Below are positions 27,489 to 29,139 of a stretch of DNA of 32,000 nt, piece by piece. Under the pieces are notes generated by a model, which worked only from the letters and a program-made list of their open reading frames with translations, made no database searches and was not told where the DNA came from. The DNA lies in assembly GCF_000875775.1 (NCBI RefSeq), contig NZ_CP010868.1:1157707-1189706 (forward strand), read 5' to 3'. Source of the DNA: Nitrosopumilus piranensis. GTDB lineage: Archaea; Thermoproteota; Nitrososphaeria; Nitrososphaerales; Nitrosopumilaceae. A program made the translations under genes and the position numbers. How positions within the stretch are numbered: the stretch's first letter is position 1; each line of letters begins with the position of its first letter.

Positions 27489-27698
27489 TCATATCTTTTG
27501 GATGGGGCATTTTGGAACAAGTTGGGCTCGAATTGCTTCAAGATTATACACATCTGTATCAGTAGAATCTATGAGAAGTTTTTCAACTTTGGTAGGCTTC
27601 TTTGGGTCATAATTCCACTGCTTGAGAAGTTTTTCCATCGAAGTCTTTTTGTGGTTTATCCACCAATCCAAAATTTTTATGGCTTTTTTTACAGTCAT
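27489..27698 (-). CDS. Hypothetical small protein, downstream partner of the 219-aa gene
   Basis: 69 aa and hydrophilic (MTVKKAIKILDWWINHKKTSMEKLLKQWNYDPKKPTK...). I prefer it over the overlapping plus-strand 82-aa Phe-rich ORF. It starts 40 nt after the 219-aa gene on the same strand. Confidence 0.45.
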   Translation of the reverse strand: MTVKKAIKILDWWINHKKTSMEKLLKQWNYDPKKPTKVEKLLIDSTDTDVYNLEAIRAQLVPKCPIQKI

Positions 27699-27738
27699 TG
27701 ATTAATGATAATTTAGATTTTGTAAAACTTTGTGAAAT

Positions 27739-28398
27739 TTAATTATTGACTGTGATTCTAGCAATATTTTCAATATTTCTAATCATTAATTCTTGTTGTA
27801 TGTGTCCCCAAAATCTAGAAGGGTTTACAAATCCTTCATCATGGTCAATGTTTAAAATTAATCTTTGATTCTTATCTTTAGGAAAAATTTTTGTAATGTT
27901 TTCTCTGCTATAGATGTAAAATTCATTGGATTCTCCTTCATACACAACATGATTCAAATTGTCTCTAAGAATTACTGATTGTCCAATTCTCAAATTTCTA
28001 ATATAATCATTTAACGCAGATAATCTGTTTCGCGGTATCAAAATTGTATCTGGTCTTTCAATTTCATTTACACTCGTAAATGCTTGCTCTAATGTATCAT
28101 ACAAATTTGCTTGGTTAGATTCAGATGTTAGTTCTAATTCCAGACTACGAAAATGGTTTATGAAATGTGCCATCTCTATTTGTTGTAATCTATTAAACAC
28201 CCGCTCATCTAATTTATCAACTGATACTGAATCAGGTCTAATCAATGTAGAAGGAACTGAAATATCAAAAGCATGTGGAGTATAATGTTGATTTTCATTT
28301 GTGACAAAAACAGGTAATGCAAATCGAATATTTTGCGTCCAAGTAATGAATCGTTGTCTTATTGCATCTTCTAATTGTGATATTATGTCTTCACTCAT
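27739..28398 (-). CDS. Hypothetical 219-aa protein with no recognisable domain
   Basis: A long ORF with balanced composition and no ATPase, nuclease or HTH motif that I can see. It is divergent from the NYN gene across 63 bp. Confidence 0.6.
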   Translation of the reverse strand: MSEDIISQLEDAIRQRFITWTQNIRFALPVFVTNENQHYTPHAFDISVPSTLIRPDSVSVDKLDERVFNRLQQIEMAHFINHFRSLELELTSESNQANLYDTLEQAFTSVNEIERPDTILIPRNRLSALNDYIRNLRIGQSVILRDNLNHVVYEGESNEFYIYSRENITKIFPKDKNQRLILNIDHDEGFVNPSRFWGHIQQELMIRNIENIARITVNN

Positions 28399-28461
28399 GA
28401 TTTTACTAACGTATTCTGATAAAAACTCATTAAAATATGAGCTACATAATAATTCTGTATT

Positions 28462-29139
28462 ATGGGCAGTTTTAGTAGTGGACCTGGATTTGCAGGTGCT
28501 AATAACATGATGATCTTTATTGATGGGGGGTATCTAAGAAAAAATGTCAAAAATTTAGTTGACAATGATGATATTAATTATCAAATTCTTGCACATTATT
28601 TACGAGATAATGGCAGATTAGATACAAGATTTGCAGCACATGTAATTAGAAATTATTACTATGATGGTATTGCCAATGTAAAAGATGCTGAATCAAATTA
28701 TGATGGCAGTGACAAAGGATTAGAACTATTAGATGTGTCATCAGAAATGATTCAAGAAAAAGAAGAAAAACAAGAAAGATATGTTACGCCAATTAAAAAC
28801 TTAGAACTTTTTGAAGTACGGTTAGGACGTCATGTATTATCTACTGTAGGCGGTGTTGAAAATAGAAAGAATTGGTCATGGAGACAAAAGGGTGTAGATG
28901 GTCTGATTGCAATCGACATGATAACTAAAGCATATGAAGGGCAATACAACACTCCAATTTTACTAGCAGGAGATGCAGATTTTATAGAAATTGTGAATTC
29001 TGTGAAAAATTTAGGCACAAATGTTGTAGGGGCATTTTTCCCAGGCCATGTCTCTCAAGAGTTAGAATATTCACTTGATAAAAAAATTGAATTAGTAAAA
29101 GGTGAATTATTAAACCAAAAAATTATTCATGAAAACTAA
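28462..29139 (+). CDS. NYN-domain (LabA/DUF88, PIN-like) putative ribonuclease
   Basis: 225 aa. MMIFIDGGYL carries the first acidic residue, QKGVDGLIAIDMITKA the second and ILLAGDADFIEIVNSVKNLGTNVVG the third. This is the NYN acidic triad layout. The start may be ATG 28507 rather than 28462. Confidence 0.8.
   Translation: MGSFSSGPGFAGANNMMIFIDGGYLRKNVKNLVDNDDINYQILAHYLRDNGRLDTRFAAHVIRNYYYDGIANVKDAESNYDGSDKGLELLDVSSEMIQEKEEKQERYVTPIKNLELFEVRLGRHVLSTVGGVENRKNWSWRQKGVDGLIAIDMITKAYEGQYNTPILLAGDADFIEIVNSVKNLGTNVVGAFFPGHVSQELEYSLDKKIELVKGELLNQKIIHEN

Follow-up and report, generated by a model that had tools for sequence, protein, structure and literature searches.

Family-1 casposons of Nitrosopumilus (e.g., NitAR1-C1 and NitNF5-C1) encode a family-B DNA polymerase of the protein-primed type (pPolB) together with Cas1, integrate at the 3′ end of the ef-2 gene, and carry OLD, NERD, HNH, and HEPN nucleases as element-specific genes, as described in two papers (PMC4046053, PMC6563490). 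The target in N. koreensis is experimentally defined as TTT|ATTGATAAAGAGT (PMC8464041), and casposons are reported to encode no detectable capsid homologues (Krupovic et al. 2014). The subject of this analysis is a 32,000-nt stretch of the Nitrosopumilus piranensis genome (contig NZ_CP010868.1, positions 1,157,707 to 1,189,706 of the forward strand), referred to here as the window, in which a gene for a NYN nuclease stands back to back with two genes encoding a 219-amino-acid (219-aa) protein and a small zinc-knuckle protein. The low-GC stretch that holds these genes, up to position 30002, appears to be a decayed casposon-derived island whose left end was not found. Its likeness to the family-1 casposons lies in the aEF-2 3′ site, the protein-primed polymerase, and the OLD and HEPN cargo; in contrast to intact elements, only the C-terminal third of pPolB is present. 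NYN genes go unmentioned in the accessible portions of the two family-1 casposon papers (Krupovic 2014, 2019), the second of which has the term HK97 in one place, and the available supplementary text of a survey of thaumarchaeal mobile elements names no NYN, LabA, capsid, or AbiV.

The individual genes also resemble described systems. HEC-09 (Hma-embedded candidate 09) is a single NYN-domain protein with conserved aspartates that occurs in defense loci, and the window NYN is alike in these respects. However, the N-terminal half of HEC-09 is an IF2B/5-like helix-turn-helix, in which the window protein differs, and HEC-09 is embedded in Hachiman, whereas the window gene is archaeal and lies in the apparent casposon-derived island. 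HEC-09 protected against none of the phages tested (Payne et al. preprint 10.1101/2024.01.29.577857). Toxin-antitoxin pairs of the PIN/VapC type share with the locus a PIN-like nuclease in a mobile island beside small genes. In contrast to such pairs, the window NYN gene is monocistronic with a promoter apparently its own, the small gene belongs to the divergent operon downstream of the 219-aa gene, and the neighbors of NYN vary freely. In structure, the modelled 219-aa protein comes closest to Family 1 encapsulins (T. maritima, 3DKT/7LIJ; P. furiosus, 2E0Z), with E 1.7e-8 and a TM-score of up to 0.60. It appears to have the same N-terminal helix, E-loop, and spine helix as well as a compact A-domain, and its gene, as with encapsulin genes, has no adjacent portal, terminase, or protease. 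The protein is about 45 residues shorter than Family 1 encapsulins, no recognizable cargo enzyme or targeting peptide is seen with its gene, and the neighbors of its family are defense and mobile-element genes rather than an encapsulin cargo operon.

The account leaned towards here, by a modest measure, sees the region as a patchwork of cargo cassettes, each transcribed on its own, within a decayed island that derives from a family-1 casposon at the aEF-2 site, and not as an obligate three-gene system. The three genes are probably neighbors rather than one fixed defense system, and the interest of the locus would lie in a previously unrecognized minimal HK97-fold family in such an island, not in the NYN toxin/immunity idea from which the analysis began.

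Gene layout and conservation

The features of the divergent locus and its immediate surroundings are as follows (ORF, open reading frame).

28462..29139, + strand: NYN gene, 225 aa (PF01936 and PADLOC HEC-09 matches)
27739..28398, − strand: 219-aa gene of a rare family, predicted HK97 fold (two AlphaFold2 models and Foldseek)
27433..27698, − strand: small partner gene, about 88 aa, with a zinc knuckle (alignment to the 87-aa gene of contig L001)
27489-27698, − strand: 69-aa ORF, a truncated reading of the small partner gene (frameshift)
24785..26866, + strand: OLD-family ATPase/nuclease (AAA_15 E 3.8e-19, PADLOC AriA E 1.2e-18, PADLOC Old E 1.7e-18)
29144..29920, − strand: AbiV-family HEPN protein (Pfam HEPN_AbiV E 1.3e-17, NCBIfam AbiV_defense E 6.7e-16)
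30001-31962, − strand: aEF-2 gene, next after the AbiV/HEPN gene (ORF list)

The original prediction for this DNA placed three ORFs at the center of the locus, with spacings of 63 bp and 40 nt, between an OLD gene upstream and an AbiV-like gene downstream. A recheck bears out the coordinates and spacings, and the Pfam, PADLOC, and NCBIfam matches bear out both flanking genes. A 1.7-kb colinear homologue of the trio exists at 76% nucleotide identity, and against it the ratio of nonsynonymous to synonymous substitution rates (dN/dS) is 0.09 for NYN, 0.16 for the 219-aa gene, and 0.17 for the small gene. Given this homologue and these ratios, the ORFs are real genes rather than chance reading frames; all three are conserved and under purifying selection. 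Rfam and tRNA scans of the window gave no matches.

The NYN protein matches Pfam PF01936 with an E-value of 2.8e-12 (47.8 bits against a gathering score of 24.2), aligned to its C-terminal half only (residues 123-209). The PADLOC HEC-09 profile matches residues 98-219 (E 2.4e-11) and is covered at positions 58-182 of 203, so that its N-terminal domain is unmatched. In an alignment of 31 family sequences, D21 (in FIDGG), D68, D146/D152 (in GVDGLIAIDM), and D171/D173 (in GDADF) are invariant, and the full acidic set claimed for the protein therefore stands. The segment bearing EKEEKQER had been read as an insertion; the same alignment shows that it is nothing peculiar to this protein, being common to the whole thaumarchaeal clade, and two residues inside it (Q104 and Y107) are nearly invariant across the family. 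The protein is predicted from these features to be a PIN-like metal-dependent RNase. A total of 148 homologues were found, mostly archaeal.

The second transcription unit had been described as an operon of 219-aa and 69-aa genes. A small gene is indeed kept downstream of the 219-aa gene; its length of 69 aa is the result of truncation. In L001, the gene that comes after a relative of the 219-aa gene encodes 87 aa and is a homologue of the 69-aa ORF, and a DNA alignment to L001 places a 1-nt deletion in a C-run of the window (27505-27508), between 27508 and 27507. Beyond the deletion, translation in the shifted frame gives PHPKDMIDTLPDGQNCNSCNTFDL, in agreement with the 87-aa homologue, and the true small gene is for that reason about 88 aa long. 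Since the downstream frame is intact, the frameshift either arose recently by mutation or is a sequencing error in the homopolymer. The C-terminus of the small partner has the form C-x-H…C-x-x-C, a zinc knuckle. A 116-aa protein of locus L006 that also has a C-terminal CxxC was considered as a relative and is unrelated (BLASTP E 13). The end of the small gene contains one further feature.

27438..27471, − strand: terminator-like hairpin, 34 nt, followed by a T-run and overlapping the last codons of the small gene (blastn and folding)

The core of this hairpin is inverted relative to positions 972-1005 of L001, where blastn gives a minus-strand match (33/34 identical) between the GGTCAAAA and TTTTGACC arms. 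Both orientations fold (-13.7 and -13.5 kcal/mol, with z of -3.7 and -3.3), and the in-frame CxxC is kept in both.

The changing company of the NYN gene

Before the joined locus described below is counted, the 219-aa and 69-aa genes stand beside NYN in only one of 86 loci, that of the window. Clustering of the neighbors of the NYN loci yields no family present in more than five. Neighbors elsewhere include OLD, TIR_2, Fic/Doc, N6/N4 methylase, integrase, and pPolB genes, a Cas1 fragment, and a weak GIY-YIG match; the AbiV/HEPN gene is absent from all other NYN loci. Opposite the NYN genes nearest to that of the window (88% and 84% identity), the divergent position is taken by an OLD gene, and no NYN is seen at six other loci with members of the 219-aa family, most of them on short contigs. 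The co-transcribed, conserved small antitoxin of a type II toxin-antitoxin system was not found, since NYN is alone on its strand and its flanking genes differ among the 86 loci.

The one recurrence of the trio comes from the metagenomic sample SRR31654871. A NYN homologue (P0010, 80% identity) lies on contig L094 from this sample, the same sample as L001. L094 begins 32 nt before the NYN ATG and has an exact 21-nt terminal overlap with the reverse complement of the L001 start, through which the two Logan contigs were joined. In the joined locus, genes of 87 aa and 222 aa on the minus strand are followed, after 56 bp, by NYN on the plus strand; this order is colinear with positions 27427-29139 of the window (76.4% over 1727 nt). 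The co-occurrence check proposed in the original prediction thus finds the trio together in the window and this single joined locus, with 85 other NYN loci lacking the pair. Of the toxin/immunity or sensor/effector system that it envisaged, the setting in a defense and mobile-element island holds and the trio recurs once, but a fixed system does not follow, since those 85 loci do without the pair. In a neighbor-joining tree the two pair-associated NYNs are not sisters, and that of the window clusters with those that face OLD. On this evidence, what lies upstream of NYN must have been exchanged at least once, which would make this slot a site of cargo exchange.

The close NYN loci share a short upstream element.

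28422..28441, + strand: motif AAAACTCATTAAAATATGAG, presumed NYN promoter, possibly shared by both directions (conservation)

A TATA-like TTAAAATA within this motif lies 25-32 nt before the NYN ATG, between the start codons of NYN and the 219-aa gene. The consensus AAAAC[TC]CATTAAA[AG]TATGAG ends about 20 nt before the NYN ATG. Every close NYN locus keeps it regardless of the gene upstream, namely those of the window, L001/L094 (joined), L004, L079, L093, L095, and L002. Homology among these loci stops just 5′ of the motif. From its retention beside any upstream gene and from the point at which homology ends, NYN appears to be a self-contained cassette with its own promoter, a role that the conservation of the motif suggests. 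A scan for sigma-70 promoters and intrinsic terminators gave hits at chance level, with models that are uninformative for an archaeon.

Several NYN loci carry other genes of note. A TIR_2-domain gene lies directly downstream of NYN at L094 733-1008, in the locus that also holds the 219-aa pair, and a Fic/Doc gene lies near NYN at L079 3710-4177; their presence supports a defense-island habitat for the NYN family. A 235-aa gene at the position of the 219-aa gene in L079 and L080 was examined and is no remote relative of the 219-aa protein (hhalign probability 0.2). In the close NYN locus L004, a C-terminal fragment of Cas1 lies 6 kb upstream of NYN, and the same locus contains two OLD-family genes that differ from each other and a large terminase whose gene is broken into separate ORFs, Terminase_6N and Terminase_6C (spans of note 1853-2290 and 11879-13394). 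This looks like an accumulation of stacked or decayed mobile elements around NYN.

The 219-aa family and its predicted fold

The 219-aa family has eight members of about 210-220 aa that are 22-79% identical. The nearest relative of the window protein (79% identity, contig L001) is the sole close one. An exhaustive HMMER search of 1.84 billion cluster representatives returned five distant relatives (24-32% identity, 209-220 aa), to which a profile search added one. The family is probably thaumarchaeal. Because family length is kept and dN/dS between the closest pair is 0.16, the 219-aa protein is regarded as a working protein rather than debris. The original prediction could place it in no family. 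At the level of sequence this holds for the protein and for every family member, as single sequences and as a profile, in Pfam, PADLOC, NCBIfam, PHROGs, and PDB sequences; at the level of fold it does not, as an HK97 fold is predicted.

AlphaFold2 was run with two targets from the eight-sequence alignment. With the window protein as target, the mean confidence (pLDDT) is 68.7 and the predicted TM-score (pTM) 0.62; with a 29%-identical relative as target, the values are 77.1 and 0.71. Foldseek searches compared the window-protein model with PDB and BFVD, and the relative's model with PDB. Nearly all of the best 50 matches per search are named encapsulins or capsids of phages and archaeal viruses, and no conflicting annotation occurs among the matches listed. 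T. maritima encapsulin is matched with E 3e-6 and 1.7e-8 (the latter being the best E-value) and the P. furiosus virus-like particle with a TM-score of 0.60; other matches include mycobacterial and Bacillus encapsulins and the capsids of P4/P2, phi29, PhiTE, and Haloferax tailed virus 1. The relative's model has 231 PDB matches at E<=1e-3. The modelled elements run from an N-terminal helix and a β-hairpin through a 25-residue helix and two shorter helices within a sheet to long C-terminal strands. This order is presumably that of the canonical HK97/encapsulin topology, which we take to be N-helix, E-loop hairpin, spine helix, A-domain helices, and P-domain strands. Judged from these models, the 219-aa protein probably has the HK97 fold. 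The original prediction had proposed structure prediction for this protein and had set a recognizable viral structural protein against its own reading; an HK97 capsid/encapsulin fold comes close to that case, by prediction only, and there are no other virion genes nearby.

The position of the family between encapsulins and capsids was examined by other means. None of the eight members has a meaningful match to the encapsulin sequence families PF04454, PF05065, and PF08967 (family definitions from PMC8346489), and a full-text literature search found no paper describing encapsulins in Thaumarchaeota, the one paper in which both terms appear being a study of virus-to-microbe ratios that has no bearing on the matter. 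Portal, terminase, protease, and scaffold genes are lacking among the scanned window ORFs (~13.2-29.9 kb) and next to seven family members. Three family members used as queries found no relatives in IMG/VR, a search sensitive only to fairly close relatives, and with the same limit tblastn found none in 50,697 deposited phage records (INPHARED). Conservation of a partner is confined to the 87/88-aa zinc-knuckle protein and to the two closest loci; more distant members have unrelated neighbors. The relatives lie in small islands of varied content. Family members stand twice next to a DUF4238 protein; one member, in a nuclease-rich island, comes after genes for Mrr, a Holliday-junction-resolvase-like protein, and an HD nuclease; another precedes an aIF-1A-like gene, and another an uncharacterized ORF that is copper-protein-like by eye only. 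The DUF4238 neighbors (L007 1036-1944 and L011 193-1302) lie one on the same strand as the 219-family gene and one divergent to it, and one of them matches PADLOC DUF4238-Pers (E 1.4e-12). DUF4238, absent from the scanned window ORFs, may be a recurrent partner of this HK97-fold family. NYN was also considered as an encapsulin cargo, an idea rejected because its C-terminus is conserved in relatives without the 219-aa gene.

The surrounding island and the competing explanations

The assignment of the surroundings to a casposon is based on two features.

23350..23927, + strand: C-terminal remnant of protein-primed PolB (63-68% identity to L005 and L017 proteins, tblastn/blastp)
30003..30015, − strand: family-1 casposon target TTT|ATCGACAAAGAGT, last codons of aEF-2 (11/13 bases match the N. 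koreensis target site duplication, TSD)

The remnant corresponds to the C-terminal ~200 residues, or C-terminal third, of a family-B polymerase, and the L005 protein matches Pfam DNA_pol_B_2, the protein-primed type, with E 2.2e-26. The island begins directly after TTT|ATCGACAAAGAGT at the aEF-2 stop codon, which is where family-1 casposons insert. This remnant and the canonical target at the aEF-2 stop are what argue for a casposon-derived island. The pPolB gene of L005 is upstream of NYN with two genes between, and that of L017 is directly beside NYN. In L017, pPolB occupies 1-729 and NYN, 41% identical to that of the window, 777-1382, with a 48-nt gap and no cargo between them; the adjacency of pPolB and NYN may be ancestral for some of the family-1 casposons. 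The comparison also shows the predicted NYN RNase, sporadic among archaea, to be carried repeatedly by islands of family-1 casposons, beside pPolB.

In the patchwork reading, NYN would act singly, as a PIN-like endoribonuclease that depends on Mg2+ and is expressed from a promoter of its own, resembling HEC-09 and belonging to a family that is sporadic in archaea and would travel through defense and mobile-element islands. Its presumed role would be RNA cleavage of an abortive-infection type or for element maintenance. The divergent operon would encode a shell protein of minimal size (~220 aa) with the HK97 fold, along with a small zinc-knuckle protein, the latter frameshifted or mis-sequenced in the window genome, and would most likely build or mimic a small capsid or encapsulin-like assembly.

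Several observations weigh against this reading. Searches for Cas1 in the window, by phmmer with the fragment from L004 and by Pfam on large unassigned ORFs, gave no match, and neither terminal inverted repeats nor a second TSD copy rise above chance in a repeat search, k-mer matching, blastn-short, and a mismatch search; "casposon-derived" is consequently a deduction from the remnant and the integration site. In the joined locus, homology with the window stops at the stop codons that bound the block, one belonging to the small gene and one to NYN, and the flanks are unrelated to those of the window, a 185-aa gene lying at one end and a gene with a TIR domain at the other. The trio is therefore a discrete block present twice, and a selected or co-moving unit would look alike. 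Most contigs with relatives of the 219-aa gene are also short (1.4-2.7 kb), so a NYN gene could lie slightly beyond their ends. This recurrence at 76% identity with unrelated flanks, the purifying selection on all three genes, and the TATA-like element between the two start codons favor a genuine three-gene system, with NYN as effector, the HK97-fold protein as sensor, decoy, or inhibitor (e.g., binding the capsids of infecting HK97-type viruses), the zinc-knuckle protein as regulator, and the 56-63-bp divergent spacer as shared control region. Such a system is nevertheless unlikely: the recurrence is single, the pair is missing even from the nearest of the 85 other NYN loci, members of the 219-aa family are found without NYN, and NYN retains its promoter-like motif where another gene has taken the upstream position. 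Moreover, the small gene is frameshifted here and NYN is intact, and the frameshift should be deleterious if the small gene were an essential antitoxin or regulator.

The fold of the 219-aa protein is open to question on its own account. The eight-sequence alignment is shallow, only one of five AlphaFold2 models in each run is confident (the remaining four have pLDDT 35-47), the Foldseek TM-scores are modest (0.4-0.6) with high rmsd (root-mean-square deviation), and no sequence profile supports an HK97 fold for the family. It is quite unlikely, however, that the assignment is a modelling artefact and that a protein of some other fold merely lies beside NYN, as two targets only 29% identical give the same fold, the 231 PDB matches offer no other fold among those listed, and the order of secondary structure fits the topology described above. 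A bolder proposal is that the 219-aa family is the first HK97 capsid-fold gene tied to casposon-derived islands, either as a minimal particle that would package or shelter for the element or as a capsid mimic that would sense or poison HK97-type viruses of ammonia-oxidizing archaea with NYN as effector; this is a long shot. Least probable of the readings weighed here is a working capsid of a mobile element (a minimal virus, a satellite, or a polinton-like casposon), with the pair as a morphogenesis module or its remnant. The predicted fold, the capsids of phages, archaeal viruses, and satellites among its best matches, the position of the gene inside the island, and the split large terminase and Cas1 fragment of the related L004 locus are all consistent with it. 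However, the scanned part of the window and the surroundings of seven family members contain no portal, terminase, protease, or scaffold gene, no family member appears in IMG/VR or deposited phage genomes, casposons do not carry the gene as a conserved component and are held in published work to lack capsid homologues, and the kept length and purifying selection are unlike those of a decaying remnant.

If the fold holds, the 219-aa protein would be among the smallest complete HK97-fold proteins, in a family invisible to every sequence profile tried and in a phylum for which the literature search returned no encapsulin report. Its position in the island bears on whether self-synthesizing transposons of prokaryotes, like the polintons of eukaryotes, ever possessed capsid genes or took them over, and the capsid-mimic option, if true, would give prokaryotes a counterpart of the restriction factors that derive from capsids. 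The patchwork reading also carries a caution for the discovery of defense systems, as a back-to-back layout in an island suggested a system and comparative context indicates that the linkage is mostly incidental.

The remainder of the island includes ORFs of less certain character. Two orphan ORFs flank the OLD gene; judged by eye from hydrophobic stretches, one of 264 aa (23932-24726, + strand) resembles a multi-pass membrane protein and one of 163 aa (26915-27406, + strand) has an N-terminal hydrophobic helix; neither has a homologue in any fetched locus. Further upstream, a 484-aa ORF (19850-21304, − strand) without a Pfam match lies where strand composition is extreme (AT skew -0.39). Degenerate tandem repeats of 54 nt and 33 nt occur there, and the ORF probably encodes a repeat-rich protein of low complexity.

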